57,203 nucleotides of DNA, from contig NC_057719.1 in assembly GCF_004010195.1 (NCBI RefSeq), positions 25,473,710-25,530,912 on the forward strand, read 5' to 3'. The translations under genes and the position numbers were made by a program. Below, piece by piece: positions 9,521-57,203 of the stretch; the first letter of the stretch is position 1; each line of letters begins with the position of its first letter. This stretch comes from Chiloscyllium plagiosum. Lineage: Eukaryota. The notes under the pieces were generated by a model that saw nothing but the letters and a program-made list of their open reading frames with translations, did no database searches and was not told the DNA's origin.

Positions 9521-9725
9521 AGAGTAAAGAGTGTGGTGCTGGAAAAGCACAGCAGGTCAAGCAGCATTCGAGGGGAAGAATCGATATTTCTGGCATAAGC
9601 TCATCAGGACTTATGCCCAAAACATTGATTCTCCTGCTCCTCGGATGCTGCCTGAACTGCTGTGCTTTTCTGGCACCACACACTCGACTCTGATCTCTAG
9701 CATCTACAGTCCTCACTTTCTCCTA
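9521..9725. mobile_element. Short Penelope-derived fold-back insert
   Basis: Inverted arms gtggtgctggaaaagcacagcag; flanking direct repeat ggtaag(c/t)atct at 9510-9520 and 9726-9736. Confidence 0.8.
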
Positions 9726-11658: not shown

Positions 11659-11704
11659 AAAAATGTGTTGCTGGAAAAGCGCAGCAGGTCAGGCAGCATC
11701 CTGA
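11659..11704 (-). mobile_element. 46-bp fragment of the same Penelope terminus
   Basis: tgtgttgctggaaaagcgcagcaggtcaggcagcatcc between perfect 15-bp direct repeats caattggtcacactg. Confidence 0.75.
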
Positions 11705-13240: not shown

Positions 13241-15858
13241 AACTAGAATGAATATATTTTCCATTTAAAATTCCATTTCATTGCTGGATTGGTCAATTTA
13301 GTACGAACTGCACTAAATAGAGGCACCCTCTAGAAATATTTCTGCAAAGCCCAGTATATTGAGTTTAGATATATGACCTTGAAACTGCCTCACGTGATCA
13401 TGAATGATTTGAGTGCAAGAAGTCAGTTTGTTGTATTATGTTATTAGATTCTACCATTGTGGTAATTACCTTTAAAAATAATTTCTCTTAAAAGTTATCT
13501 CACTTACAATAAAGATATAATCTTGATTCCCTTGCACTAATGCTTACTTTGTTTCATAAATTCCTTTACGAGAAATTTTCTTTAGATGAATTTCAGTGCA
13601 TTTCTTTTTCCTGTATGCCCTAACTATGAACCTGCATGAATAGTTTATTTAAGAACAACTTTAAAATATTAATCTGAAGTTGCTTGTATTTTACAGAGGC
13701 CTTGCTGGGCCCCCTAACAATAGGCCTTGTGTTGGTGGCTGAAGGCCAACTAAACTTCTGCAATGAACAAAGACCAGCTGACCCCATAACAGGTCAAGAT
13801 AAGATTTTCTGACAATCACTTTGTGTTGAGTTTTACATGTGTTTTGTGGTTTTTGCACACAATCCATGAAAGGGAACCTTGGCATCAGGAACATAATATA
13901 CAAGTTTTGTAAATCCAAAGAGCTGCTTTTAATCTCAACTCTCACATAATGCGAACATGTTGCACAAGCTAAGCTCTATATAAAAAAGGACTTTGAATGA
14001 AAGATAGTTACAGTGCATTGAAAGTGAATACATAATCGAGGAACTTTTTTGTGCTTTAATCAAACTGAAACCAAACTTTTGAATTATGCAAGTGTAAGTT
14101 TATCTGTCAACGATTCAGATATACAGGTATCCTATTCAAGTTAAACTAAATGTATACATTTAAGGTTTCAGTAAATAATCAGTCAGCAAGCTTTTCAGCT
14201 GCAAACAAAATCCATATTAATGAAAGAAACTGTAGACTGTAGGCATAGAATAGAATGGGTGAAAAGCAGAAACTTTGATTAAAAACTTGAGCTATTACTT
14301 TGAGAATAACAAGCCCAAGCATTAAAAGAATTTATATAGCAGCAGAACAACAACTGCTGAACAAATTGCATTTTTAACTTTTGAAGTGCTGCTGAGTGTG
14401 TTGAAGAGGTTAGTAAGCAAAGAAATGGCATATCCCTCAGAAGGATAATAGCAAACAAAATGGCAACTCAGTGTCTTCTTGCCTATTCAGTAATGTCAAT
14501 AGACCTGGGTGGGCCTTGGTTAAGAACTAACACAGGTGATATGTAGGAGAGTTAAGATGATACATTTATATCAAACAACTGATTTTAACTCAATTGGCCA
14601 GAAACCGGAATTGAATTTCTGAAAAAAATCTGATGTTTTAAAAAGTGACAAAATGTGTTGCACACATAATCAAGATGGTCAGCTAATTTGCATTACTGCG
14701 CCTTCCACATTCCAGCTCCAAAGATACAGGCAGTATATCTGCAAAGCCCAAAGGTTCAGAGAAATTTGAATGAATTAAATGTTCTTTCCCATCAGCACAA
14801 CATTAAGAAATAACACCTGGATGGAGACAAACTATGAAACCTAATTACTTGAACAACGACATCTTTCTAAGATGCCAACTTCCAAATCTGGATGTTATAA
14901 AGTTATAATTAGACTTATGTGCAGCAGATTTTAAGCAACAAACTCAATTCCACAGTTGCCTGCACAAGTATAAAGAGATCTTCCAGTTTTCTGCTGAGAA
15001 GAGATACCATCTGATTCAGCCTGAATTCTGCTGAGCAGCCTAATTACAGACTGTGAATCGATCCTTACTATGTGCACAAACCATGTATATTTTATTCCTT
15101 ACTTAGATTTATTTTAAAAAGAACATTTTTAAAAAAACAAACAATATCTGTTTTCATTGCTATTTTATGATCATTATGATCAAAGACCTAAGTACTCACA
15201 AAACAGGAAGGCATACATTTTTCAAATAAATTAATGCTGCATTCAAACAAAGAAAAATGAGAGAGCAAGAGGGGAACAATAGGTGCCTGCTCACCTGATC
15301 ATAAAGGATAAACCTGCAAAAGTTATAGCAAGATCTTGTTCCCATAGTTACAAACCTCAGTACCAGCAAAAAACTGCTGCTACATTTTACTTCTTATTCT
15401 GAAATTTATCTGTGGTTTTTAAACTTATGTATCAAACTCTAGGGGCAAGGCAAACCATTTAAAGCTCAAAACAATAAGCTGCTTACTTTGTATATTTTAT
15501 TTTCCCACTCTTGTGTAGAGGTTGAAAATATTGCATTCTGCATGTTTGCAATCCTACAGCAAATTAGAACTAATAGTGTTTGGTACATATTTGGTCATAA
15601 ATTTCTTGGATAAACATGAATAACTAAAATTCAAATGAACAATGCTGTTCCACACTTTTTCTCCCCTACTTTCAGTACACTTAATTCACATTCAGCCTCT
15701 TGTAATACAGATTAGGATATTGGACAGAAAAAGATATATGAGCATGAATGGACAACACTACGTTTATAACAACAGCAAAACTTTAGCTTGAGCTCTGCGA
15801 AAGGAAGATACCAATCCAACATTCATAATTTTACGTACCATGTACATGCTCCCAGCAG

Positions 15859-16072
15859 AGTCAAAAAGTGTGGCGTTGGAAAAGCACAGCAGGTCTGGCA
15901 ACATCCGAGAAGAGTCAACATTGTGGGCATAAGCCTTCCTGATGAATGTGTCATGCCGAAACCATCGACTCTCCTGCTCCTCAGATGCTGCCTGACCAGC
16001 TGTGCTTTTCCAATGCCTCACTTTTCCACTCTGATCGCCAGCATCTGGAGTCCTCACTTTCTCCGACTTGTG
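15859..16072. mobile_element. Short Penelope-derived fold-back insert
   Basis: Same inverted arms, central ctgatga...ccgaaac; flanking repeat cccagcag. Confidence 0.78.
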
Positions 16073-28046: not shown

Positions 28047-28273
28047 TATAGGCGAAAGTGAGGATTGCAGATGCTGGAGATCAGAGACAAGACTGAAGTG
28101 GTGCTGGAAAAGCACACGTCAGGCAGCATCAAAGGAGCAGGAAGACAGACGTTTTGGGCCGGAGCCCTTCATCAGGGACCATTCCTGATGAAGGGCTCCT
28201 GCCCAAAATGTTGATTTTCCTGCTCCTCGGATGCTGCCTGATCTGCTGTGCTTTTCCAGCACCACTCTAATTT
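28047..28273. mobile_element. Penelope-derived fold-back insert within a decayed minus-strand CR1 3' fragment (about 27760-28530)
   Basis: Two opposed ctgatgaagggc...gccc motifs; 10-bp direct repeat agtcattggg at 28037-28046 and 28274-28283. Confidence 0.82.
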
Positions 28274-31506: not shown

Positions 31507-31999
31507 CTGAAAAGAAGGTACAAAAGACGTGTTTCAGCTCATCTCAAACATTTTATACAATCCTGAGAAAAGACCAGGTTAATTTTAATAATTTTTATGG
31601 TTTATAGGTAAAGAAAGTATTGCTAAAGGAGATCTGGAAATAAAATTATATTGTATGCATCACATCTAATGAAAAAGGGATACTCCATATTAAGTCCCAG
31701 CAATTATTCATGCTCAGGTATCTACAGGAAATAAATTTGTATCCATTTCTTACTCATTGACCAGGGAGAAGAGAGGTTTGAATAGATATGTGAAAAATAT
31801 ATTCATTTTATGTTTATTACTCAAGAGTTCTGTGAATTAAGATGACAAAGAGTGTGAAGGTGAACTGGGAAGAGGCTAAGTAAAGCTAAGGCATTCCAAG
31901 ATCTTTTTTGCAAGTTCAGTAAGCATAGATACTTCCATAAGTTCAACCATCATAGATGATAAATTAATCATTTGTAGAGTTAGGCAATAGCTAGGGCAG

Positions 32000-33340
32000 A
32001 GCTGAAAAATGTGTTGCTGGAAAAACGCAGCAGGTCAGGCAGCATCCAAGGTGCAGGGGAATCGACATTTCGGGCATAAGCCCTTCTTCAGGAATGAGGA
32101 AGGTGTGCCAAGCAGGCTAAGATAAAAGGGAGGGAGGAGGGACTTGGGGGAGGGGCGTTCGNNNNNNNNNNNNNNNNNNNNNNNNNNNNNNNNNNNNNNN
32201 NNNNNNNNNNNNNNNNNNNNNNNNNNNNNNNNNNNNNNNNNNNNNNNNNNNNNNNNNNNNNNNNNNNNNNNNNNNNNNNNNNNNNNNNNNNNNNNNNNNN
32301 NNNNNNNNNNNNNNNNNNNNNNNNNNNNNNNNNNNNNNNNNNNNNNNNNNNNNNNNNNNNNNNNNNNNNNNNNNNNNNNNNNNNNNNNNNNNNNNNNNNN
32401 NNNNNNNNNNNNNNNNNNNNNNNNNNNNNNNNNNNNNNNNNNNNNNNNNNNNNNNNNNNNNNNNNNNNNNNNNNNNNNNNNNNNNNNNNNNNNNNNNNNN
32501 NNNNNNNNNNNNNNNNNNNNNNNNNNNNNNNNNNNNNNNNNNNNNNNNNNNNNNNNNNNNNNNNNNNNNNNNNNNNNNNNNNNNNNNNNNNNNNNNNNNN
32601 NNNNNNNNNNNNNNNNNNNNNNNNNNNNNNNNNNNNNNNNNNNNNNNNNNNNNNNNNNNNNNNNNNNNNNNNNNNNNNNNNNNNNNNNNNNNNNNNNNNN
32701 NNNNNNNNNNNNNNNNNNNNNNNNNNNNNNNNNNNNNNNNNNNNNNNNNNNNNNNNNNNNNNNNNNNNNNNNNNNNNNNNNNNNNNNNNNNNNNNNNNNN
32801 NNNNNNNNNNNNNNNNNNNNNNNNNNNNNNNNNNNNNNNNNNNNNNNNNNNNNNNNNNNNNNNNNNNNNNNNNNNNNNNNNNNNNNNNNNNNNNNNNNNN
32901 NNNNNNNNNNNNNNNNNNNNNNNNNNNNNNNNNNNNNNNNNNNNNNNNNNNNNNNNNNNNNNNNNNNNNNNNNNNNNNNNNNNNNNNNNNNNNNNNNNNN
33001 NNNNNNNNNNNNNNNNNNNNNNNNNNNNNNNNNNNNNNNNNNNNNNNNNNNNNNNNNNNNNNNNNNNNNNNNNNNNNNNNNNNNNNNNNNNNNNNNNNNN
33101 NNNNNNNNNNNNNNCACCTTAACCTCCTTCCACCTATCACATTCCCAACGCCCCTCCCCCATGTCCCTCCTCCCTACCTTTTATCTTAACCTGCTTGGCA
33201 CACCTTCCTCATTCAGAAGAAGGGCTTTTGCCCGAAACATCGATTCCCCTGCTCCTTGGATGCTGCCTGACCTGCTGCGCTTTTCTAGCAACACATTTTT
33301 CATCTCTGATCTCCAGCATCTTCAGTCCTCACTTTCTCCT
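32000..33340. mobile_element. Penelope-type insertion with inverted termini spanning an assembly gap
   Basis: 32000-32160 is the reverse complement of about 33145-33300; flanking direct repeat aatagctag(g/a)gcag. Confidence 0.82.
32064..32091 (-). ncRNA. Minimal hammerhead ribozyme core in a Penelope terminus
   Basis: CTGAAGA-a-GGGC-ttat-GCCC-GAAA-tg-TC; stem I weak. Confidence 0.6.
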
Positions 33341-33420
33341 AATAGCTAGAGCAGGAGGAACTAGAATTTGCCCAAAAAAATGTTATATCGGTTTTCTCTA
33401 TTTAAATAAATTACTAATTT

Positions 33421-33730
33421 GGGCAGCACGGTGGCACAGTGGTTAGCACTGCTGCCTCACAACACCAGAGACCTGGGTTCAATTCCCACCTCAGGCGACT
33501 GACTGTGTGGAGTTTGCACATTCTCCCTGTGTCTGCATGGGTTTCCTCCGGGTGCTCCGGTTTCCACCCACAGTCCAAAGATGTGCAGGTCAGGTGAATT
33601 GGCCATGCTAAATTGTCCGTAGTGTTAGGTAAGGGGTAAATGTAGGGGTATGGGTGGGTTGCGCTTCGGCGGGTCGGTGTGGACTTGTTGGGCCAAAGGG
33701 CCTGTTTCCACAGTGTAAAGTAATCTAATT
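33421..33730 (+). mobile_element. HE1-type V-SINE, full length
   Basis: A box tggcacagtgg, B box ggttcaattcc, taatcta tail, flanking ctaattt repeat. Confidence 0.9.
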
Positions 33731-33752
33731 TCCAGATACGAAAAATAGGTTT

Positions 33753-34046
33753 TAGATTAGATTAGATTATTTACAGTGTGGAAACAGGCCCTTTGGTCCA
33801 ACAAGTCCACACCGATCTGCCGAAGCGCAATCCATTTAGAATCATTCACCTAACATTATGGGCAATTTAGCATGGCCAATTCACCTAAGCTGCACATTTT
33901 TTGGACTGTGGGAGGAAACCGGAGCATCCGGAGGAAACCTACGCAGACACGGGGAGAATGTGCAAACTCCACACAGAGTCGTCTGAGGCAGGAATTGAAC
34001 CCGGGTCTCTGGCGCTATGAGGCAGCAGTGCTAACCACTGTGCCAC
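33753..34046 (-). mobile_element. HE1-type V-SINE, tail-to-tail with the previous copy
   Basis: Reverse complement of the same consensus, with an internal deletion and (aatct)n tail. Confidence 0.9.
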
Positions 34047-34479: not shown

Positions 34480-36165
34480 GGAATCAGAAAGGTCTACAGG
34501 AGAGGAATGGGTTCCAGACCAAGTCTGAGTCAGTCAAAAACCAGTTCTTAACTATTCAAATTCCATTTTACAGGACTTGGCCCATAGTCCTCAATGCCTT
34601 GTCATTACAAGTATAAATCTAAACACTTAAATATTGAGGGTGTATGCCTCTATCACTTTTATTGGCAGTGAGGTCCCCCCTGAAAACGTTCCTCTGAAAA
34701 CCATTTTCTTTACCTCCTGCCCCACATCCTAAATCAACACTTCCCAGTCGCTGATCCCTCAATCAACGGGAAACCCTTCCTGTCTATGTCCATATTAAAT
34801 CTATACATCTCAGTCACGCCCCCCCCCTCAGCCTCCTCTGCTCCAAAGAAAATAATCCTAGTCTGTTCAATCTCTCTTCAAAAAGAAAACTCCGTAGCCC
34901 AGGCAACATCTCCTCTGCACCCTTTCCAGTACATTTACAACCTGCTTACAGCGTGCTTTGCAGAACAGCACACCATACTCTAGCCATGGCCTAACCAATG
35001 TCTTATACAGTTCCAGCATAACCTCATTGCTCTTAAACTCAATGTCTCCGCTAACAAAGGCAAGTATCTTAACCACTTTTATCTAGCTGTCCCGTTAAGG
35101 GACAAGGAAACATGTACATCAGGGTCCCTCTGATACTTCGTGCTCTCTAGGGTCCTACAGGTCATAACGCATGTCCTTATCTCAGTGTCCCGATCACGTG
35201 CAACGCCTCACACATACAGATCGGATTCCATTTGCCACTGATCAGGCCGTCTATATCCTCTTGTAATCTAAGGCTATTCATCTTACTAATTTTCATATTG
35301 TTCATGAACTTACTGATGAACCCTCCTATATTCAAGTTAAAACTTTTATACATATCACAAACAGCAAAGGCCCTCCACACTGATCCTGGCAGAACCCCAC
35401 TGGATATATGGTTCCAGTCACAAAAACATCCCTCGACCATCATCCACTGCTTCCCGCCACCAGGCAATTGTGGCTCAATTTGTCAAAAATCCTTGGATCC
35501 CATGGGCTCTTTCCTTTGCTATCAGTCTCTCATGTGGAGTTTTTACTAGAAGCCTTGTTGAAGTCCGAGCAGACTGCATCAAATACATTGCCCTTATTGA
35601 CACACCCGGTTACCTTTCAAAGATTACAATCAAATCGATCAGACGTGACTTCCCCTTAACAAAACCATGCTGGCTACTCTTGATTAAGCCCTGCCTCGCC
35701 AAGTATAGATTAATTCTGTTCCTCAGAATTGTTTCCAATAGTTTCCTCACCATGGAGGTTGGACTGACCGACCTGTAATTTCAAGGTTTATCTCTTGCTT
35801 CCTTCTTGAATAATGCAACTGCATTGGCTGCCCACCAGCCCTCCAGTACATCTCTTCAGGCCAGACAGGCATGAAATTATCACCAGCATTCTTGCTATTT
35901 CATCGCTGGCCTCACTTAACAACCTAGGATACCTTGCATCTGGCCATGGAAACTGATCTGCTTTTAAGCCTGCCAGACCACTCTGAACCTCCTTTCTGAT
36001 TATGCTAATTTATTTCTGTATATCATAGTCTTTCTCCCGAATTTCTATATCCTCATCATCCCTCTCACTAATGAGCACTGCCACATTTTGGTACTCCATG
36101 GACCCTACTCTTTCCATTATTCTTTCACCCTTAATGTACTTATAAAATAACTTAGGATATTCCTG
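34480..36165 (-). mobile_element. Decayed CR1 RT and 3' end
   Basis: LELYKTLVRPWLEY, SGVLPGSVW, QHGFVKGKSRL. Confidence 0.8.
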
Positions 36166-36351
36166 AGGTGGGTGTGAAGAGTTTGACCTGAACGTAGATC
36201 TGCAAAATTACTGTGAACTATTGAATCGTAATTAAATCTCTAATGTTAATAAGGCAAATACAGTAGATGCGAGATATCCAAGTTGCATTATCTGTGATGC
36301 TCAGCTGCCAAGCCAGTAAAAGGAGTTGGATTTCTTGCCCCCAAAACAAAC

Positions 36352-36475
36352 CTGCATTTGATTGTAACTGTCTTGTTGTCGTTTAAGTGATGATTCTGCT
36401 TCCAGAAGCCTCTCTTGCATTGTCTGCAAGGCTTGGTTATGCATGCTGCTCCCTTCAGTATGATCCTGCAGTATT
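36352..36475 (-). CDS. golga5: Golgin-84, coding exon 4
   Basis: caaaag|A then ILQDHTEGSSMHNQALQTMQERL...YNQMQ|gtttgt; 124 nt, phase 2 to 0. Confidence 0.95.
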
Positions 36476-39400
36476 CTTTTGAAAGAAAACCACATTATAA
36501 AACTCTTTATGGGGTTTCTCAATGCAACATGTAATAAGCACAGCATCTCTAATTGATTAGGACTTTTGTATTACCTATCTTCTACCTGCAGTTTCTAATT
36601 TGGCAGTGTAACAGCCTCATCTAAAACTACCAAATTATAGGCACAGCACCATATTTTACTACAACAAAATTCAAGTATCTAAACAGCCAGACCTTTGATA
36701 ATTGGCTGTTTTAGGTGGTGCAGAATGTTCTTTTTCTTTTGGGAACGCAAGGCTGAATCCAGTGCAAAGTCATTAAATTGTCTCATGTCCAGTACTACAA
36801 TAAGTGAGATTAACTGAGCTCAACCCAACACTCAATGGGATATCAATTGTATGAGACAAGAATAAAATTATTGATAAATTGTCATGGTTTTACACAGTTC
36901 TTTGTCTATTTGAAGAATGTATTTTATCTAAATTGTTGCTTCTAACAAATCGCTGACTGCCTGTTTAGTATCTGCGATCACAAGCCACCCTCACCTGCCA
37001 CTCAAGGTATAAGTTACTGCTTCCCAGCTTCTCAACTTTACATTGGAGAAGTTGGGAGGCAGCAGGCTTAGATTGTAATTAAATGCGCATTAAGTAATTC
37101 TTAAAGCAAGAGGAAGTCACTGTGGCATTGGGATATTTTAGAATACAACAGACAGTTAAATGGAAAAGTTAGAATAATTGGTAGCAGGATGCATCATGGA
37201 AATTGTAGAAATATGAGACAGCAATTGAGTGTGTCTTTGTGAGGCTTTTGAGAGAGATTTAGAAAGGAACAATGGAGTAAGAAAAGGGCTGGAGTAAGTT
37301 CACCTACAATGCCCATTTGTGCTCTTTACACTTGGATAAGGACGAAAGGGAGCTGCTGGAATTTGTCAAAAAAAAAAGCTGTAGTGTAAGAACGATTGCA
37401 GCTTCCCCAATACAATGCATAACAAGGGAAAAAGGATTATGGGTAGGCCCAGCATTACAAATGGACAACTGGATATTGATTCTGAGGCGATCATGAAATG
37501 GACTGCATCCTCGGGTTATCAAAATCTAAACATGCCAAACAGAAATCTGCGAACGTACAGTAGTGGAGACTATCGTTCAAGACAGGCAAGTAACCTTAGG
37601 AACACAATTGAGGGGGTTTCCCCCTATTCCACTTCTCTGATATCTGAATCCAAACTGGATTATAATACCAGTCAGGACAGGGCAAGGACAGAGGCACAAA
37701 AGGTGGGTGAAGAACCCTTGGATGGTTAAGGAAGAGATCAAGACATTGCACAAGTCCTTTTTCCCCAGTTAAGTTAAAGAAGTCCCCTGTGAAAATTGTA
37801 TTTTATTCAGAGTGTTCCTCTGACAGGTAATAATAGCATCACTTACATTTAATTGAAGAACATAATAAAACAAAAGGTAATCTGAAAGTAAAAGACTTAA
37901 ACTGCTTTGATTCTTAGCATTTATAAAGTAAATTTGTCTGCGAATAGTATGAACCTAAGTTTTTTTTAAGACATTGTAAAAACAAAAAGATGATTTCTTA
38001 CTGTAAAAGACCTGCTCTCAAAACATAATTGAGTTGCATTTAGACGATATCCAATTTGAACTTAGAATTTGGAATGAGAAATATTTTGTTTTTAAAAGTT
38101 GGTTGTTAAAGCAACTTAACAAAATTGTTTTTAAGACAACAGAAATGTTAAAAGTCTGTTTGAGACGTGAAGCCAGGGATGGGTGGAGTGCTCATCCTGA
38201 CTTTGTCTTTTTTTCTGTTGATTTAAGGATCATTTCCATTTTTTTTTCTGGCCTAAGGCTAGGGCACAGTCTGGGTTTGAAGGAGCTGTGAAGGAGGGGA
38301 TGAGTAGGGTGAGTGACTCCTATGGGGATGGGGAAGAGTTTTCCATTCAACGTTTTATAATTGGTTTTCTTTGTAGTTTTTTGATAGTAGTAGATGTTTA
38401 TAGTTATGATAGAGTAGTTTTTGGAGATATAGTTCTTCGACTCTATGAGTCTTTATTTACTTGTGCTCGGCACTTTGTAAGCAGGGCTGTCCGTCCCAGA
38501 GGTTCAAGAGTCTCTGAAAGGGGATATGGCTAAGTGTCTTATTAAATGGTGCACCTGGAACATCAAGGGAAGTCTTCGCCTGTTAAAAGGAAAAAAAGTG
38601 CTTTCTAGCCTTAAGAGGGAAAGGGTTGATATCACTTTGTTGCAGGAAACCCATCTTGATGATGGCATACACCTGAAATTACAACAGGGGTGTTATGACC
38701 GGGTATTTTTTTCATCCTTTACAACTAAAAGTAGGGGAATGGCGGTACTTATCTAGAAAAATCTTCTGTTCATATTATTAGAGGTGAAAGGTGAGCAGGG
38801 ACGGTTTATGATACTTAAAGCCCTGATACATGGGGAGGAATATGGCATTCTAAATGTCTACTGTCCTCCAGCGCATCCCCTCAAATTTTTGATTAGTGCT
38901 TTCTCTAAGCTGAGTGCTTTTGGAACATGGCACATTATTATAGGGGGGATTTTAATTGTCTTTTGGATCAGACAGTGGACAGGATGCCTTGTGGGCCCCC
39001 AACTATTTCTTCGCAGGCTAAGCAGGTGGTTGACTTAGGCAAGGAGTTGGGGCTGGTGGACATTTGCAGATGGCTTCACCCTACCGGCAGGGATTTCACC
39101 TTTTTTTCAAACTCACATAAATGTCACACAAGGATTGACCTCTTCCTGGGCTCCCTTGGCCCTTCTGGATTCAATTATGGGTTGTAAAACTGAGAATATA
39201 GCTATCTCTGATCACACAGCAGTATATTTGGAGGTTAAGGCCAAGAGTGAGGGGCTAGGTTTGCAGCACTGGAGTTTGGACCCTTTTCTCCTTAAGGATT
39301 CCAAATTTGTGGAATACTTTTTGAAGGAGTTTCAGGAATTCTTGACTATCAACTCAGGCACAGCTATGGAAGACTGCTAAGGCCTTTATGAGGGGATTAG

Positions 39401-40657
39401 CTATTTCCTATTCAGCTAGCCGGAAATGACAGAAGGAGGAACAGCAGCGTCTACTTGAGACGCGGTTGAAAGCCGTCGAGGAGGCACATTTTGCATGGCC
39501 TTCGGCGACTAAGCTACAGCGAATCACAGCCCTCCGGGCTACCTTGAATTCAATACTGACACAAAACGCAAAGAAAGAACTTGCTTTTGGTAGACAAAAG
39601 CTGTTTGAATATGGGGATAGGCTAGAGAAGTATTTAGCGTACCTGACTAGGAAAAAGCGTGCTCCCCAACCCATTACTGCAATCAGAGACAGCGCCGGGG
39701 TCCTTAGATATGATGCTAAAAAGATTAATGAGGCTTTTCGGAGCTTTTACTCTGAATTGTATTGGACTGAAGGTTGTGAGGACTACAGGGCTAAAATGGA
39801 GGCTTTTTTTAAGAATGTGGACCTTCCAGGGGTAACCCTGGAACAGGCCTCTCTCATTAATGCCCCCTTGACAGTTCAGGAAATACAGGAGGCAACTAAA
39901 CAACTTAAGTGGGAAAGCTCCTGGCCCTGATGGTCTCCCATCAGTTTTATAAGGAGTTTATAGGGATTCTGTCAGGGCTGATGTTGGAGATGTACAATCA
40001 CTCCTATATGCATGAATGCCTACCACCATCTTTAAGAGAAGCTAATATTTTCGTAATTCTTAGGAAGGGGAAGGTTCCTGAGGATTGTGCCTCATACAGG
40101 CTCATCTCTCTATTAAATTCAGATTTCAAGATTCTGGCACTGAGATTGGAAAAGGTGTTGCCCCATATTGTTAAAGAGGACCAGACAGGCTTTATAAAGG
40201 GCCGTAGGTCCTCTAACAATTTTAGACGTTTGCTGAATATGGTCCAGGTTTGTCAGCAACAATCGATTCAGGGGTTGGTGATTTCCTTAGATGCACAGAA
40301 AGCATTTGACCGAGTGGAATGGCTTTATTGGGTTGGGTTGGGTGGGTGGAGGTTTTATATCGCCACCCTCTGGCCGGTAAGGCTGCCCCCCTCACCATTG
40401 TTATTTACATTGGTGATTGAGCCGCTGGCAGAGGCCATTCGTCAGAACGTCCATATAACCGCTCCAGAAGTGGGATCGAGGGCACACAAGATTACATTGT
40501 ACGTGGATGATGTCCTTCTGTTTTTATCGAACCCGATGACCTCAATACCCTATTTGATACAATGTATCAATTAATTTGGAGCTATTTCAGGATATAAGAT
40601 TAACTTTGCAAAATCGGAGGCTATGCCTTTGGGGAACCTCAAGGATGTGCCAGAAGT

Positions 40658-40708
40658 GGGCGGCACAGTGGCACTGTCTAATCTAATGTAATGTAATCTA
40701 ATCTAATC
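40658..40708 (+). mobile_element. Collapsed HE1 SINE (head plus tail only) in the L1
   Basis: gggcggcacagtggcac joined to ctaatgtaatgtaatctaatctaatc; AAGT on both sides. Confidence 0.7.
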
Positions 40709-40985
40709 AAGTTGAAGGTGGCCCTCAGTTCCCTTTTAAATTGTCACGGGCAGGGTTCCGATACCTAGGCATTTTTATTACCCCCAAGTTTGATCTGTTA
40801 TTTCAGAGATGGAAAGCTCTCTCAATTTCATGGCTGGGCCAAATATCTCTCATCAAGATTAATGTTCTTCTTCGTTTGCTTTATCCCAAGCGCATGCTCC
40901 CTATAACGTTTCCCAAGTCACCGCTGTGGAAGCTTATGGGCTGTTTTGGTCCCTTTGTCTGGATGTAGGTTTGCTCGCCTGAGGC

Positions 40986-41025
40986 CCACTGAAGATGTTA
41001 CCTAGTAGGGTGACGAAACGTCTGG
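40986..41025 (+). ncRNA. Minimal type I hammerhead ribozyme motif (Penelope-type)
   Basis: cca-CTGAAGA-t-GTTACC-tagtag-GGTGAC-GAAA-cg-TC-tgg: all core nucleotides, 6-bp stem II, 3-bp stem I. Confidence 0.8.
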
Positions 41026-42199
41026 AAATGAACCTCCCAGCTCAGCAAGCAAATCTACATCCATAGCTGTTCTGTATTCTGTGGGTTTTTTTGCTTTTCT
41101 TTCTTTTTTTTGATCTATTAGTTATTTACTTATTTATTGGTGTTGCTTTGCATAGTGTTAGGGTTTGTTTTGTATTATAGGGTCAGTTAGTAATTAGTAG
41201 ACAGTAGTTGTATTGTAATTTATGGTTTTTTTTTCTTTTTATTATACTGAAATTTGTTATTGGTTGCATTTTTCAATAATTGTATATGTTTGTAAAGTTA
41301 AAAAAATTTGCTAATAAATATATTTGCAAAAAAAAAAGTATATTTGAAATTCACAAGGTTGACAGTTTAAAAAAAATTAAAGGGATACCTTGAATCACCC
41401 AAAAATCAACAGGAACCCAGTTTACAACCAAAGTTTCAATCACTTTCATGTTGTCAATTACAATGGATTGGCTATCACTTAATATCCCCCTCAGAACATA
41501 GCCCTTGCCATCCATTAACTTGTTGTAGTTGGTCACAAGATTTGAAAGAGACTTTGTTGAGACATGACTTTTCTCCTCTGTAAAGAATATTGCCCAAACA
41601 GCTTGCATTTCCACTTGCCCACTCAAAACAGTGGCTATCTCCAAAACATTTTGGTTTAGTCTCTGTGCACCTATAGTAACTTATCCTTTGAGGATTTTTT
41701 ACTATTGCTTCATGTTGCTCATTTAAAACTGTTGCTTTCTATCAGACATTTAAATTATACATCAAGTTTTCCACTCCTTTCCTCCCTCAGCACTAAGCAA
41801 CTTCTCACTTTCAAATCATTTCAACCTCCTTTTCAACTCCTCTTGCTTTTTCTTTGAAGTTTATGTCTCTCCTTTCTTTAAAATCTCTCCATCCAAACAT
41901 ATTTTTCTGTACAGCCATCCCATGATCCCTGCTATCACATTCGCTACACGTATTGGAACTGTTAAATGGACAAGAAGATATCTAATCACTGTTATATTCC
42001 TACTCACATTCATCTTCTCAATTTCATTTATTTCTGCAGAGTTCTGGACAAGGAATTTTCCATCCGATCACTTACTAACCTGCTTTGAAATTTTAAGCCT
42101 TTGAACTACAATTTATAATTACATTTATGAAGCTATTAATTTATAAAATCACAGTTTCCAAGGCCTTTGAAGACCCCCTTACACATACACAACCATATT

Positions 42200-42960
42200 T
42201 TCCCAAGTATACACCTTATCACCATTCAAGTCCAAATGAGGCACAGTTGAGTATCTCTGGTGCACAACTGGTTTAGTCATCTATCATCAGATCTGGCAGA
42301 ACCATGTCAAGCATTTACAGATCCCACTTCCCATTTCTCTTTCACTCGCTGTCCAAAGATAATCCAATAAAACCAAGATACAGCCTGGCTTCTCTTCTCC
42401 AGCTCAGACCATCCTCCATTTCTTATCACCCTCCTCCAGTAAGGTTAGGATCTCTGACTTTCTTCCCTTCCCATAGACCACTGGGTCAAGTTTCCCAAAT
42501 GCTTGCCACTGCCCTCAGCCCTCTTTCTCTAGATTCTCTCTCTTCTTTCCCATGCTCTGTCCAAGCTGACCTTGCTCCTGAAAATCCTATTCTGACCCAA
42601 ACATTAACCACACCTTCCCTTTCTGGGACCCAAGCTGGAAAACGGTTCATGGATCCCTTTTCTCAGGTCCTGTTCCAACATCTTCCTCAAATCTGACATC
42701 ATTACATTTTCTGTCAAAAAATAAAAGCCACTTTTAGCCCCCTTCTTCCTTGAAGACAACCAGCCTATCTCCAGAGTCCCATTCTGCAATATCACTGAAC
42801 ACTTTGGTGCTTCCCAAATACATGCCTACCAATCAGGAATCCTGCCCCATTCAAATGAAATAATCCTTGTCAAATTACATTTTTTTTGCAACCATGACTA
42901 AAATCTTTCCCTCCTTGTCCATCTTGAGATATCTACAGCTTTTGATGCAATTGACCAAAA
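42200..42960 (+). mobile_element. Decayed L2-clade RT fragment
   Basis: ctccttgtccatcttgagatatctacagcttttgatgcaattgacca resembles LLVLLDLSAAFDTIDH. Confidence 0.55.
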
Positions 42961-43084
42961 TATCTAGTTTTTGTCTTCATGTGATGTTTGATCTGTTACT
43001 ATCAAGTGATTATTCATGGGTTTAGTCCTAGATGGGAAATTAGAATCCAGTAGAAAATGTACATGCCAATAAATTCAATAAAAC

Positions 43085-43304
43085 CTGTTTCTTTCATTCT
43101 GGAGTAGCTCCAATGCTTCATTACGTGTCTTCAGAAGCTGATCTGCCTCTTCCAGTCTCACTTTGAGCACAGCCAGCTGAGAATCCTTGGCACCCAGCAC
43201 CTCATTCAGGTCATCAATCTGGGAACGCAGTTCCCTACCTATCCTGTCGGACTTGGAATTTTCAGTATTCCATTTTTCAATCTGTTTCCTGGCTTTATTT
43301 AACT
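43085..43304 (-). CDS. golga5: Golgin-84, coding exon 3 (absent from the ORF track)
   Basis: tttttaag|AG then LNKARKQIEKWN...AKDSQLAVLKVRLEEADQLL...ERN AG|gtttt; 220 nt, phase 1 to 2. Confidence 0.95.
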
Positions 43305-44967
43305 CTTAAAAACAAAAACATTTAGTAAGAAACGATTAGGCCAAAATACAGACGAGCACATCCAAACAAACAACGGTGAAAATAACTAGCAGTGCAACTA
43401 GACTCTAATGGAATATGAATGTCATACATATATAATACTAAGTGAAATGCACATGGCCACACAGCCAGCATTTGTGGTTATAATTATCACAATAAATTAA
43501 GGTCTTAGTTTAATAGTATAGAGCACAAGATGTGGTATGTAGTATTAGTATATTGGCATAATGGCCATTAGAGTCATTGTCCAGTGGTGTCACTGTCTAG
43601 TGTTGTCACTGTCTAGTGTTGTTAATTTGTTGAATATATATGCTCTATATAGGAGTGAAAAAAATTGACTGCAGCCAATTACTGTCTTCATTACCATTAC
43701 TCAGCTGAGCTCACTGGCTTAGCATAGGCAACACTCCTGATAGCTGTTTGGAGTCACGGAGAGAATACAGTAAGGGCATTTGATCAGGAAGCCTGAAAGT
43801 AAGAATTTCTGCTGAAATGAACATGAAGACAACATTTAAATTTCTCTGCAGGTTTTCAGGCTGACAACTAACACTGTTCAGTCTGGGATAGGGCAGCAGA
43901 GATAAATGAATGGAGGAAGGGAGAGCAGGGATGGGAGATGATGGTGGAAATCAAGATGGAAATCATGAGGTGTGGTCTAGAAGTGTAGAAAACATTCCTA
44001 GTATACTCAGCTCAAAGAGCACCATTTAAGGTTTGTCTTGCCTCTTGAGATACGGAAACCTTGACCAAAATTCAATACAGAACTTCACAAAAATGGAGCA
44101 CGCAGCTAATTTAAAGACTTCAAATGACCCACCCACGTACCAAGAGCAATTTGATCACCCAGAAGGGAATGAGTTGAGGGTTAACTGAATTACTTTCCAT
44201 TGTTATTTGTCTACTTCGCTGAACCCACTTGATAACACTTGCATTCATTTTAACTCACCCCAATAAAATCTGAGAGCTTTACTGTAGCATGGCTTAGTGC
44301 AATGTCTTGTGATATACTGATCAGCCAACTAATTTTAAAAATGGTTATCCTTCAAATATGATCCAGGTTTCTTTACATTTTAATGTAAGTTGTCAAGTAA
44401 GCTGGCCTTCTTTTCTGCTTTTGGTTGTTCTTTGCTTGAATTTGAACAATCTCTCCTGGAACAAAGCTAAGTGATTAAATCAATTGAGCTTTCAGGAGCA
44501 AAATATTTCAGTTCAATATTTTTAAACCTGCCTTTGCTCAAGTTCACTTGTGCCACGCATTAGCCTAAATAACAATAATGATTAACGTTCCCTCCAAGGC
44601 AGTGCGTGCACAGCAATCAGAACGTGCCATGCAGGGAATAAAGAGGCCAGAACATAAGCAACACCCCTTCAAGATGCATGCATGCGATGCCAGGTATTTA
44701 TTCTAACGGGGTCATACAGTGCAAAAGGATGATTGCACACAAACTGAAACTGAAGGAACCTTGATAAGGACTATGAGAGCTTTTCCTTTTCCTGACCCTA
44801 AATGATAGATTACATATTTTAAAAAATGCTTTGTGTGACATACAATTAGAAACATATGCCTGGAATCCTGTTTATATAATTACCACAAACGGTCTGTTTG
44901 TACCCAAGTCGTGGATGCACGCAATGAATGCAATTCTGAGAGTCAAGTGCTAGTATTCCTGTCGTAC

Positions 44968-45189
44968 CTTCTTGTGTTTGCTTTGATCTCTCAATCACTG
45001 AAGCCATTTCTTGGTTCAAGGAGGAAACTTCTCCCCGCAGCAGCTGGTTCTCAAGCCGCAGGTTTGATAGCTCAAGTGACTGACTCTCATCTTTAGCTGA
45101 TAAACTTCTGCTAGCTGTAATACTTGATGCTTGCTCTTTTGAAGGCTCTATTTGGGCATCGTCGCTCATATTAGAGCTTTCTGAGGCAC
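44968..45189 (-). CDS. golga5: Golgin-84, coding exon 2
   Basis: ttttcag|GTGCC...ELSNLRLENQLLRGEVSSLNQEMAS...QTQE G|gtacga; 222 nt, phase 1 to 1. Confidence 0.95.
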
Positions 45190-46336
45190 CTGAAAATATT
45201 AAAACAATAACCAATAAATGAAAAATTAAGGATAACTTAATTCACACTTTCAAAGACTAGCTTGATTTTTATATGTTATGTCACAACCTCTATCAATAGG
45301 TGTAGATAATTCAAAATTCACTGACAGTACAGTAACCTATAGTGGTCCAAAACAGATTTGAACGTTCAAACATCAAGATTATACTTTGCAGCTGTCTGAA
45401 CAGCTTTACACAATGCAACTGTGAATTGGTAACTGAGGTGTGGGTGGTGCTCTTCGTACCTGACAGGCAATAGTTTTCCTAATTAATTTTAGGAATTGGA
45501 AAAAAGTGTGCTAGCTGAGGCGCTGATCACCATATCCAATTTTCTAATCCATGCTCCCAGTGGAGTGAAATGCAGTAACATGTTGGAAATTTAAGTCTTG
45601 TCAAATTCAGTCTTGCTGAACATTCAACTAGATGAAAAGAAAGTATCATGTACATTCTAAATGCATCCCACTCGGCATCCATGTGTGCTTTAATGTGGTC
45701 CAACCATACAGCTTTTAAGAACATAAGAATAAACACCAACTCCTCTGCCAGTATTTAATTATAAAGTATACATGATCAAATTTTGCAACACATCAATTGG
45801 TAGAGAATTTCTGTGCCATTTCAGAACCTACAGATAACTTGTGGGTATGCGGATGGGGGATTTGGCTGCTGCACTGAATCACTTACTTCTTTATTCCTTT
45901 ATTTTGTCTTGACCATTTTCAGGCCTCTATTCCAGAACCCCCACACTAAAGCTGTTTCCCGATACCTTTACAGCTTCTATTTCACTATCCTATCCAACTG
46001 CTAGCCCAAAAGTCGCACAATTCCTTTGCCATCAAGCCAAACTTGAAATTGCCCTGGGAGGGCCCACAGCTTCGCTTGTTAGTGTTCTTAGCATTCTCCT
46101 GGTGGAAAACTTAGGTGTCAGTCAACAATTCTATACAAGGTGCAAAGTCTTTTGCACGTTTTCCTACCTTCTACTTTTGCTGATCTTCCTAGCTCCATAT
46201 CCGTAAGTGGCAAACTCCCACTCCTTTTCATTCCGTTCATCCCTTGCACCATCATAAACAAAGACCCTTGCCATTGTCACATTGGCTGCAATGACATTTT
46301 GGCTTTCAACTGAAGTTGTAAGACTATAAGATATAG

Positions 46337-46492
46337 GAGAAAGTGAAGACTGCAGATGCTGGAGATCAGAGTCGAGTGTGGTGCTGCAAAAGCACAGCAG
46401 GTTAGGCAACATCTGAAGAGCAGGAGAATCGATGTTTTGGGCATAAGTCCAGGGCTGTCTGACCTACTGTGCTTTACCAGCACCACACTCTC
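46337..46492. mobile_element. Short Penelope-derived fold-back insert
   Basis: Inverted arms; 15-bp direct repeat gactataagatatag at 46322-46336 and 46493-46507. Confidence 0.8.
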
Positions 46493-46499
46493 GACTATA

Positions 46500-50552: not shown

Positions 50553-50861
50553 TAGATTACATTACAGTGTGGAAACAGGCCCTTCGGCCCAACAAGTCCA
50601 CACCGACCCGCCGAAGCGAAACCCACCCATACCCCTACATTTAACCCTTACCTAACACTACGGGCAATTTAGCATGGCCAATTCACCTGACCCTGCACAT
50701 CTTTTGGACTGTGGGAGGAAACCGGAGCACCCGGAGGAAACCCACGCAGACACGGGGAGAACGTGCAAACTCCACACAGTCAGTCGCCTGAGGCAGGAAT
50801 TGAACCCGGGTCTCAGGCGCTGTGAGGCAGCAGTGCTAACCACTGTGCCACCGTGCCGCCC
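50553..50861 (-). mobile_element. HE1-type V-SINE, CpG-rich and probably young
   Basis: Intact A and B boxes, gggccgaagggcc and taatgtaatcta tail. Confidence 0.92.
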
Positions 50862-50869
50862 ACTATAAT

Positions 50870-52020
50870 AGGTAGGCAGGAGGCTTGAAGACCACAGCAA
50901 GCCAGGCAGCATCAGGTGGTGGAGAAGTCAATACTTCATGCATAAACCTTCTTCAGGACTGGGGGTGGGTGTGGGGAGGGAACTGCAGATAAAGGGGGTG
51001 GCGGGGTGGGGATAGGTGAAGACAGGCAGAAGATACGACCTGGTTGGTCAATAGGAGGAACGAATCAAGTTGGTGGCAAGGAGGAGTGGAATGGTGAGGG
51101 AGGTGCTGGGAAGGCATTCAATGGATGGGAAGGGAGGTTATTTAAAATTGGAGAATTCAATGTTGAGTCCTCCAGGCTGTAGACAGCCCAGGCAGAAGAT
51201 GAGGTGTTGTTCCTCCAATTTGCGGTCTGGTTCATTGTGGCAATGCAGGAGGCCAAGGATGGTCATGTTGGAAAGGAGTGGTTGGGGAAACTGAAACGAA
51301 CGGTGACCGAGAGGTCCAGTCAGCTCCTGTGGGCCCCGGCTGTGATGCTTGGCAAACCGTTCCCTAAGTTTACGCTCGGTCTCCCCGATGTACAGAAGAC
51401 CACATCGGGAGCACCTGATGCAGTAAACTATTTTGGAAGGGAGGCAGGTGGACTCTATCACCTGGAAGTACTGTTTGGGACCTTGGATGGAGGTGAGGAG
51501 GGTGGTGTACCAGCAAGTTTTGCATCTTTTCCAGTTGAAGGGGAAGGTACCTGGGGGTTCGGTGATGAGAGTGGTGCAAACCAAGGACGGTCGAAGGGAA
51601 CAGTCCTTGTGAAAGGCAGAGGGGGATGCGGAGGGGAAAATATTCTTGGTGGTGGTGTCTAGTTGGAGTTGGCGCAAATGTTTAAGGATGATGTGTTTGG
51701 TGTGGGGTCTGATGGGGTGATAGACGAGGATAAGGGGCCTCTGTCTTTATTGTGTTGGCTGGGGTGTTTAGAGCAGGGAAATGGGGAATGGAGGTGGTGC
51801 AGTCAAGGGCTGTCTGGATGACAGAGGGAGGAAAAGCACGCTATTTGAAATAGGTGGACATCTGGGATGCTCACGAGTGGAATGCCTCCTTGTCTGAGCA
51901 GATGTAGCGGAGGAATTGGGAGAATGGGTTAGAGTTCTTGCAGGATCCTGGGTGGGAGGAAGTGTGGTCCAGGTAGTTATCGGAGTCAGTGGGTTTGTAT
52001 AAACGTCTGTCTGGAGACTC
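50870..52020 (-). mobile_element. Penelope-like element 3' part with GIY-YIG endonuclease remnant
   Basis: CKTC...IVYCIRCSRCGLLYIGETERKLRERFAKH...LQPGGLNIEF, followed by a terminus with a decayed agtc-ctgaagaagg...gact hammerhead. Confidence 0.9.
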
Positions 52021-54750: not shown

Positions 54751-55630
54751 GTTCTTTATATTATATCACAAGACAGACATTTCACAGTAGCTGTTAATTC
54801 TACCAGAACAGCAGAAACATGCAGTTATAAACTAAGTCCACAAACACAGGTAGGGCAGCATTGATATTTTATTCACATAAAGACATATATGGAAATCTCA
54901 ACTTTAATAATGTATTTTATAGGAATTAAAGTTTGCAAATTGTCTGTGCGTGACACATTTGAGTCTTTATTCAACAGCAACCTCAAATGCTGCTGGTGGC
55001 AAATGTGGTGACAGGAAGATTCATTGACCAGTAGTAGGAAATGGTTAGTCTCTATAGTGGAGATAGTACTGACCTAGCACTTGTATACCATAAATACTCT
55101 ACCTCAAAATGCAAGTAATGCTTATAGGATNNNNNNNNNNNNNNNNNNNNNNNNNNNNNNNNNNNNNNNNNNNNNNNNNNNNNNNNNNNNNNNNNNNNNN
55201 NNNNNNNNNNNNNNNNNNNNNNNNNNNNNNNNNNNNNNNNNNNNNNNNNNNNNNNNNNNNNNNNNNNNNNNNNNNNNNNNNNNNNNNNNNNNNNNNNNNN
55301 NNNNNNNNNNNNNNNNNNNNNNNNNNNNNNNNNNNNNNNNNNNNNNNNNNNNNNNNNNNNNNNNNNNNNNNNNNNNNNNNNNNNNNNNNNNNNNNNNNNN
55401 NNNNNNNNNNNNNNNNNNNNNNNNNNNNNNNNNNNNNNNNNNNNNNNNNNNNNNNNNNNNNNNNNNNNNNNNNNNNNNNNNNNNNNNNNNNNNNNNNNNN
55501 NNNNNNNNNNNNNNNNNNNNNNNNNNNNNNNNNNNNNNNNNNNNNNNNNNNNNNNNNNNNNNNNNNNNNNNNNNNNNNNNNNNNNNNNNNNNNNNNNNNN
55601 NNNNNNNNNNNNNNNNNNNNNNNNNNNNNN

Positions 55631-57203
55631 GTTATACTGTACATGACGGGGACAGGGGAGTGGGTATATACTGTACACGACGGGGGAGTGGGGGTATACT
55701 GTACACAACGGGGGAGTCGGTGTATATTGTACATGACGGGGGAGTGGGGGTATACTGTACACGACGGGGCGGTGGGTACTTACTGTACACAACGGGGGAG
55801 TGGGTGTATATTGTACACGACGGGGGAGTGGGTGTATACTGTACAGAGTGGGGGAGTGGGGGTATTAATTACACGATGGGGGAGTGGGGGTATACTGTGC
55901 ACGACGGGGGTGTGGAGATATACTGTACACAGCAGGAGAGTGGGTATATACTGTACACGACAGGGAGTGGGTATATACTGTACACGACGGGGGAGAGCAT
56001 ATGTATTGTACACGACGGGGGAGTGGGTATATACTGTACANNNNNNNNNNNNNNNNNNNNNNNNNNNNNNNNNNNNNNNGTGCGAATATACTGTACATGA
56101 CGGGGGAGTGGGTATATACTGTACACGACAGGAGGTGGGGGCATACTGTGCGCGACGGGGGAGTGGGTATATACTGTACACGACAGGGGAGTGGGTATAT
56201 ACTGCACATGACGGGGAGTGGGTATATACTGTACACGACGGGGGATGGGGGTATACTGTACACGACGGGGGATGGGGGTATACTGTACACGACGGGGGAG
56301 TGGGTGTATATTGTACACGACAGGGGAGTGGATGTATATTGTACACGACGGGGGAGTGGGTATATACTGTACACGACAGGGGAGTGGATGTATATTGTAC
56401 ACGACGGGGAGTGGGTATATACTGTACACGACGGGGAGAGGATATATATTGTACACGACGGGGGTGTGGGTATATACTGTACACGACGGGCGAGTGGTAT
56501 ATATTGCACACGATGGGGGAGTGGATATATACTGTACACGACGGGGGTGCATATTGTACACGACGGGGGAGTGGGTATATACTGTACACGACGGGGGAGT
56601 GGGTATATACTGTACATGACAGGGGAGTGGATGTATATTGTACACGACGGGGGAGTGGGTACATACAGTACACGATGGGGGAGTGAGTACATACTGTACA
56701 CGAAGGGGGAGTGGGTATATACTGTACACGAGGGGGGAGGGTGTATACTGTACACGACGGTGCAGTGGGTGTATACTGTACACGACGGGGCAGTGCGAAT
56801 ATACTGTACACAATGGGGTAGTGGGTATATACTGTGCACGACGGGAGAGTGGGTATATACTGTACACAACGGGGGAGTGGGTATATACTGTACGCGACGG
56901 GTGTGGGTGTATATTGTACATGATGGCGGAGTGGGGGTATACTGTACACGACGGGGCAGTGGGTATATACTGTATACGAGGGGAGAGTGAGGGTATACTG
57001 TACATGTCGGAGGGTGGGTATATACTGTACACGGGGGAGTGGGCATATACTGTACACGACGGGGGCGTGGGTATGTACTGTACACGACAGGGGGGGTGGG
57101 TATATACTGTACATGATGGGGGAGTGGGTATATACTGTACACGACAGGGGAGTGGTGTATATTTGTACACGACGGGGAGTGGGTATATACTGTACACGAC
57201 GGG
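55631..57203. repeat. G-rich minisatellite, 28-bp unit, about 55 copies, running off the window
   Basis: Consensus tatactgtacacgacgggggagtgggta. Confidence 0.97.

Follow-up and report, generated by a model that had tools for sequence, protein, structure and literature searches.

A minimal hammerhead motif in a probable Penelope-like insertion at an L1 deletion point in a golga5 intron of the shark Chiloscyllium plagiosum

Host gene, resident L1 and other repeats of the window

The window analysed here is a stretch of 57,203 nucleotides from the genome of Chiloscyllium plagiosum (contig NC_057719.1, positions 25,473,710 to 25,530,912). Eleven tblastn pieces put the gene for golgin A5, golga5, on its minus strand. 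One exon of this gene (43081-43305, minus strand) encodes residues 268-342 and is 97% identical to golgin A5 of Hemiscyllium ocellatum; against the golgin A5 proteins of Hemiscyllium, Rhincodon and Heterodontus, the identity is 96-97%. Another exon, identified by tblastn and starting from residue 341, is found at 36334-36477 on the same strand. The golga5 exons were not named by a Pfam search, and were named by the homologue search. The element described here (40960-41063) is located in the intron between the exons at 43305-43081 and 36477-36334, together with a decayed L1 retrotransposon on the plus strand. Since the hammerhead motif of the element is on the plus strand, it is antisense to golga5, as an earlier note on this DNA had claimed, and the golga5 pre-mRNA bears the non-catalytic strand.

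The L1 is represented by an ORF2 with endonuclease and reverse transcriptase (RT) regions at 38526-40962 on the plus strand (RVT_1, E = 5e-16). It is disrupted by frameshifts and several internal deletions, one of them of 15 codons near 40805, and its best relatives are 50-55% identical. The reading is broken off at about residue 848. In tblastn comparisons with six full-length relatives, drawn from the best 120 of 743 matches, homology stops at 40962 in all six, at residue 845-850 of 1263-1277; thus, about 415 codons (approximately 1.25 kb) of ORF2 are missing. Contigs of other L1 copies align through 40961-40962. The stretch that follows the element (41064-41338, plus strand) begins with TAG and is T-rich, with an AATAAA and an A-run, and on these sequence features it is plausibly the 3'UTR and poly(A) of this L1. 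Positions 41086-41200 were left out of the read comparison described below as a repeat. The proposal of the earlier note that the element lies at an L1 deletion point is therefore upheld; of the jump from ORF2 to the L1 3'UTR that it also described, the break at 40962 stands and the identity of the 3'UTR is plausible.

Two further observations concern the L1. Identical 12-bp A-rich words at 37367-37378 and 41327-41338 may be its target-site duplication (TSD), which would place the L1 5' end near 37379; this is a weak reading, because both words are A-runs. A short insertion in ORF2 at 40659-40715 starts like 50840-50862 (minus strand), which we take to be the end of a SINE, and continues as an AATCT/AATGT microsatellite. 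Elsewhere in the window, two SINE-like copies in inverted orientation form a 600-bp imperfect palindrome at 33431-34046, and a tandem satellite-like array with two assembly gaps occupies 55094-57203.

Another hammerhead family is also present in the window. Its head-to-head form was found in five of eight regions tested, and head-to-head stubs lie at 8727-8886, 9521-9732, 15855-16070, 28047-28268 and 46332-46499; their halves are inverted about a point at or close to the hammerhead, one side has a tail, and TSD-like repeats of 8-18 bp accompany four of the five. Two longer arms, also head to head, are placed around an assembly gap (32162-33114) at 31996-33341 and have a 14-bp TSD; the gap may hide a longer insertion of this family. 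A 46-bp stub consisting of the 3' end only (11656-11701) is accompanied by a 17-bp TSD-like repeat. TSD scores of at least 8 were obtained for six of eight insertions of this family, compared with 4 of 150 random pairs, and scores of at least 12 for four of the eight, compared with none of the 150. Associated with this family is a GIY-YIG ORF (51141-51746; E = 8e-5, above the cut-off), which belongs to a 5'-truncated Penelope-like copy of approximately 1.1 kb (50870-52010, minus strand) that ends in a decayed hammerhead of the same family.

The hammerhead motif and its relatives

A minimal type I hammerhead occupies 40986-41025 on the plus strand, as judged by sequence inspection, a descriptor match and the consensus line in Fig. 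S3 of Cervera and De la Pena (2014; PMC4209133). Stem I is formed by CCA (40986-40988) paired with TGG (41023-41025). Positions C3 to A9 correspond to CTGAAGA (40989-40995), which is followed by one extra T at 40996. Stem II consists of GTTACC (40997-41002) and GGTGAC (41009-41014), with a U-G as a possible seventh pair, and the 3' part of the core is made up of GAAA (41015-41018), CG and TC (41021-41022), with the predicted cut after 41022. Helix III is replaced by the palindrome ACGT (41018-41021). Thus, the core CUGANGA ... GAAA ... UH is present, with C3-G8, G12, A13 and A14 all intact. When both strands were scanned with a strict minimal-hammerhead descriptor (stem I of at least 3 bp, stem II of at least 4 bp and an intact core), 40986-41025 was the only match in the window, and 60 simulated windows with equal dinucleotide make-up gave one match in total. 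Searches of Rfam at the gathering and E-value thresholds gave no hammerhead match, and four weak matches were due to chance.

Conserved features of the minimal hammerheads of Penelope-like elements (PLEs) include a base between positions 9 and 10.1, a G10.1-C11.1 pair and a palindrome (Cervera and De la Pena, 2014). Here, T40996 is the extra base between A9 and 10.1, G40997-C41014 is the G10.1-C11.1 pair, and helix II is 6-7 bp long, where more than 4 bp are expected of PLE minimal hammerheads. Similarly, the 3-bp helix I, CUGANGA plus one base, the long helix II closed by G-C, GAAA, the palindromic N-N, UH and the H after A9 are all shared with the motifs in the pLTRs of metazoan PLEs, and those motifs are mostly single and dispersed in truncated elements, as is the motif at 40986-41025. 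The row Clonorchis sinensis (2) in Fig. S3 of PMC4209133 has nearly the same layout; the host here, however, is a shark, and the available text of that figure holds no chondrichthyan row. The earlier note had described an intact minimal hammerhead of Penelope type with these stems, this core and a cut after 41022, and the sequence, the descriptor and the published consensus all agree with that description. The features that it singled out are all present, but an extra base after A9, a palindrome for helix III and a short stem I are standard, as they belong to the >80% consensus of PMC4209133.

In BLAST comparisons at word size 7 and E < 10, no similarity was detected between 40960-41063 and the other hammerhead repeats of the window, so the hammerhead at 40986-41025 represents a second family, again in agreement with the earlier note. 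Self-BLAST of the window revealed the 104-bp unit as a single copy with no tandem. Non-LTR retrozymes (PMC7229834; bioRxiv 10.64898/2026.07.22.740005) resemble the element in being short non-coding repeats with type I hammerheads, a kinship to PLE pLTRs and dispersed monomers. As presented in the available parts of these sources, they are defined by tandem units, whereas the element stands alone as a stub, has an inverted arm and carries a hammerhead of the minimal rather than the canonical form. Membership among the retrozymes was rejected, as the window contains the unit as a single copy and not in tandem. No report of a Penelope hammerhead from a shark was found in the openly searchable literature, and the lone match used 'shark' for the shape of the motif. 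The bioRxiv study covers one chondrichthyan genome according to its available text, so shark-type families may be listed there.

Family unit, inverted arms and insertion

The hammerhead is placed between inverted arms at 40960-40978 and 41045-41063, which are 19 bp long and complementary at 17 of the 19 positions. If one gap is allowed, the arms extend to 24 bp at 87.5%, although the last bases of this longer match lie in the sense piece (40975-41063). Reads from 4 of 24 runs were compared with the locus at 80% likeness, a comparison in which read depth is not copy number; one of them, run X1 (organism A, DNA), may be the source of the assembly. In X1, the depth was 194 over 40958-40974 and 305,223 over 40992-41008. 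The corresponding depths of the left arm and the sense piece were 510 and 827,655 in run X15 (organism B), 192 and 27,121 in run X16 (organism C) and 1.9 and about 120-130 in raw RNA reads. The left arm thus reached less than 0.1% of the sense-piece depth in two DNA runs and about 2% in RNA reads.

The depth plateau spans 40975 to 41063 in organisms A, B and C, and loose ends indicate that the family sequence carries on upstream of 40975-40987 in other copies. From depth and loose ends, the sense piece belongs to a larger element of very high abundance, of which it is a truncated end, and the family unit does not include the left arm. The sense piece (40975-41063, plus strand) is read as the 5'-truncated end, or pLTR piece, of a high-copy Penelope-like family, with the tail absent, and the left arm (40960-40978, minus strand) as a short inverted copy of the family 3' end, the reverse complement of 41045-41063, specific to this insertion. 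In other copies, a tail of at least 30 nt was found behind 41063 in 59 RNA reads (agreement 0.66). Behind the same position, DNA runs contained the tail mixed with unrelated AT-rich flanks (agreement 0.40-0.42), which reads as many family copies ending at or near 41063. Among the contigs listed, inverted arms of other lengths or with other junctions occurred as single contigs in X1 and X15, and no contig spanned the whole locus or represented an empty site. The inverted ends on which the earlier note had based an element of about 105 bp are therefore real, but they represent the inverted, 5'-truncated pLTR that is typical of Penelope insertions and not terminal repeats.

The two mismatches between the arms are informative. 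At 41054, C is present in 86% of X1 depth, and the left arm retains the base compatible with this common C. At 41047, G is present in 41% of X1 depth and in 77 of 109 RNA reads, and the left arm again retains that base. Because the left arm keeps the common family base at both mismatches, the arms were probably identical at insertion. The fold of the 104-nt strand (z = -4.99) is driven by the inverted arms; with the left arm removed, z is +0.31.

A candidate for the first 23 codons of the parent ORF runs as an open frame from 40995 to 41063 on the plus strand, with an ATG that the hammerhead supplies as A9, the extra U and G10.1. We infer that this ATG may be the start codon of the parent, a claim kept conditional because protein searches for a parent RT/GIY-YIG ORF with the short candidate N-terminus gave no match, in what is a weak test with so short a query. 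DNA scans of viral contigs, a collection that is not eukaryotic, gave nine matches to a 16-mer, none in a hammerhead context, and none to a longer pattern; two scans of metagenome collections, also not eukaryotic, gave 0 and 0 matches to the family. Since the parent ORF was not found, membership among the PLEs is based on structure, and the parent is probably of Penelope/Poseidon type. The likeness to Poseidon lies only in the ATG-at-stem-II layout of PAc, a Poseidon element of Anolis carolinensis (Frangieh et al., 2024; PMC11167929), to which the family was compared by layout and not by sequence. In the available text on PAc, internal RT starts bound the tail, both target strands are cut and extended, the ORF begins at stem II, and cleavage is protein-assisted. 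The RT start stem-loop of PAc lies 111-118 nt into the ORF, unlike the ends here, which are +69 without the tail and at least +99 with it.

On this structure, 40960-41063 is read, with a probability of roughly 85%, as a dead, 5'-truncated insertion of a Penelope-like retrotransposon in a shark genome. It is of a known kind, namely the minimal hammerhead of a PLE pLTR in the standard inverted-end stub, and represents a new shark member. An inverted 5'-truncated pLTR together with an optional tail of 30-40 bp is described for PLEs in the available parts of three sources (Arkhipova et al., 2013, PMC3846280; Craig et al., 2021, PMC8557442; and a curation guide, PMC8969392). Arkhipova and colleagues also reported overlap and palindromes at the inverted junction, first codons in the pLTR and TSD-less insertions, and proposed fold-back priming. 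As in these EN+ PLEs, an inverted 5'-truncated pLTR copy adjoins the 5' end of the sense piece head to head, the inverted and direct copies overlap, some copies have a tail, and the first codons would fall in the pLTR; insertions lacking a TSD occur among them as well. The unit here differs in being very short (19 + 89 bp) and in being located at a target deletion of approximately 1.25 kb. No PLE insertion with a comparable target deletion was found described in the available portions of the literature searched.

The junction can be defined closely. Family homology begins at 40975 and the inverted arm extends to 40978, leaving TCGC (40975-40978) common to both. This overlap falls in a stretch where the family RNA is imperfectly self-complementary across the two sides of the hammerhead; when the sense piece is folded by itself, 40977-40983 is predicted to pair with the region 41041-41050. 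At the outer left border, TGG (40960-40962, plus strand) is common to the L1, where it is the Trp codon of an F-x-W motif and the last codon in the tblastn alignments, and to the left end of the element; this border is thus uncertain by three bases. Both outer ends of the element stop at one and the same family nucleotide. No adjacent TSD was detected at 40960-41063; the best nearby repeat scored 7, a value reached by 16 of 150 random pairs. A 9-bp repeat at 40940 and 41066 was rejected as a TSD, being non-adjacent and at chance level.

In the proposed mechanism, the parental RT would initiate internally on the RNA, at the tail-less end (41063), and copy through the hammerhead before stopping 10-14 nt upstream of C3. 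Another short cDNA starting at that same end, or else a fold-back of the first, would be joined to it at TCGC, an overlap in a self-complementary part of the family RNA. The intervening L1 DNA of the target would be lost as part of this event. Such a loss during insertion is probable and is the simplest reading, because L1 sequence reaches the left end of the element to within three bases and a single family nucleotide marks both of its ends. The 4-base overlap within a complementary stretch is compatible both with the fold-back priming of the 2013 proposal and with a separate cDNA primed at each target end. Since a completed fold-back would copy target flank, and none is seen, we infer that two-ended priming is slightly favoured. 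A more elaborate version, which is doubtful and offered tentatively, would make the stub a two-ended-priming patch over the L1 gap of about 1.25 kb, primed at both ends at one internal RNA site, with the cDNAs joined at the complementarity flanking the hammerhead, so that a distal helix I would set the inversion junction. The extra U would then be the U of the AUG, and cleavage 25 nt downstream would sever the start codon, linking the ribozyme to translation.

Decay, activity and rival readings

Family copies vary at two CpGs in and beside the hammerhead core. Their four bases, C11.1, G12, C15.2 and G16.2, are changed in 11-36% of depth or reads, so about one quarter of copies keep both CpGs; the fraction with both intact was about 0.23-0.26, a value that is raised somewhat artificially by the likeness filter. 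At the core adenines, run X1 had no change of 5% or more, and all six A-site changes counted fall elsewhere. In the absence of selection, non-CpG sites would likewise show few changes. G12 is the general base of the hammerhead in the available text of PMC6155905, and because it decays like any methylated CpG, the genomic copies are under no visible selection. The family decays neutrally at its core CpGs, and the intactness of the copy at 40986-41025 is nothing special. The word 'intact' in the earlier note thus holds for the completeness of this core and carries no further weight.

Some variants preserve pairing. In X1, 41012 G>A, which turns U-G into U-A in stem II, accounts for 14%; 41025 G>A is present in 15% of X1 depth and in 61 of 122 RNA reads, and T is found at 40986 in the loose-end consensus, linkage on one molecule aside. 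Judged from pooled reads, the stem II change is consistent with pairing, and the two stem I changes are likely to be compensatory. N7 varies from A to T at 15%. The stem I variants C-G (as here) and U-A (half of RNA reads and 15% of DNA contig depth) hint at subfamilies. About three quarters of RNA first mates are on the minus strand (about 97 and 32 in depth), a bias whose meaning depends on the library chemistry.

In its 104-nt context, the hammerhead-compatible fold makes up 0.2% of the predicted ensemble, and the pairing probability of stem I is 0.02; when the RNA is cut down to 45-53 nt, the compatible fold rises to 7-8%. On these models, self-cleavage by the copy at 40986-41025 is neither shown nor favoured. 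Of 150 RNA reads (about 2% of one poly(A) single-cell run), one was at least 99% alike to the locus, and at most 1 in 150 is attributable to it. No RNA data set was listed as covering 36000-45900, an outcome that speaks in neither direction. Read ends did not pile up among the 150 reads, although a fragmented poly(A) single-cell library is a poor test of a cut site. Cervera and De la Pena (2014) reported that the genomes of fluke, coelacanth and frog each contain single motifs by the thousand, that the one solitary monomer tested did not cleave in vitro, and that dimers cleaved at a low level. Dimer cleavage is also the subject of Lunse et al., as cited in the available text of a review (PMC6765202). 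By analogy, the hammerhead of the parent would be fairly likely to cleave weakly, either as a dimer through ACGU or with the protein of the element.

The most serious alternative to loss of L1 DNA during insertion is a separate deletion, either earlier or later, or one that joined at TCGC two family copies about 1.25 kb apart. This L1 has other internal deletions, such as the 15 codons near 40805, so the deletion at 40962 could be separate; an overlap such as TCGC suits microhomology-mediated deletion, and TSDs are the rule in the other PLE stubs of the window. However, a separate deletion would have to land on the edge of the element, whose outer ends are intact to within three bases, with L1 sequence right up to it, and the version with two copies within 1.25 kb would, as we see it, need three events. 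A separate deletion is therefore unlikely, though it deserves consideration. Far less credible is a 105-bp non-autonomous family, MITE-like or retrozyme-like, whose terminal inverted repeats are fixed and whose core is the hammerhead. The unit is bounded by 19-bp arms and does fold as a long hairpin, but the depth of the left arm relative to the sense piece, given above for the DNA and RNA reads, speaks against it, as do copies that extend upstream and downstream of the unit, arms that vary in length, and the absence of a TSD and of tandem units. A MITE-like element was accordingly rejected, as the family copies do not share both inverted ends and no TSD is present here, and this reading is largely refuted by the read comparison.

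Equally remote is the view that the hammerhead shape arose by chance, or is retained only since the same bases encode the start and end of the parent ORF. The motif does overlap the candidate ATG and open frames, and Rfam gave no match, whereas the simulated windows yielded only a single descriptor match among 60, the variants at 41012 and 41025 keep the stems paired, and the same form recurs across metazoan PLEs. The least likely reading is that of an exapted active ribozyme that processes an antisense or L1-derived transcript and thereby affects golga5. It would account for the intactness of all core bases and for the sole window match to a strict descriptor, but a quarter of the copies keep both CpGs without selection, the golga5 pre-mRNA contains the non-catalytic strand, stem I is hardly paired in context, and no second copy is nearby to form a dimer. 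Further, the solitary minimal hammerhead of PMC4209133 did not cleave in vitro, RNA-seq ends at the PAc cut site are absent in the available text of PMC11167929, and RNA reads from the locus are as scarce as stated above. The copy at 40960-41063 is thus very probably a passenger with no role at golga5.

Taken alone, the insertion matters little, as both its ribozyme class and its insertion pattern are already known; that it bridges a deletion and has an AUG within the hammerhead core is of modest note. Its value is as a clear example bearing on the resolution of Penelope insertions, a step called undefined in the available text of published papers: target DNA is lost instead of duplicated, the junction falls in the self-complementary stretch around the hammerhead, and both ends fall on one nucleotide. 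Counted across the family, such junctions could separate fold-back from two-ended priming. If the doubtful two-ended-priming patch is true and TSD-less, deletion-bridging stubs prove to be common, Penelope elements would be a source of kilobase deletions in shark genomes.
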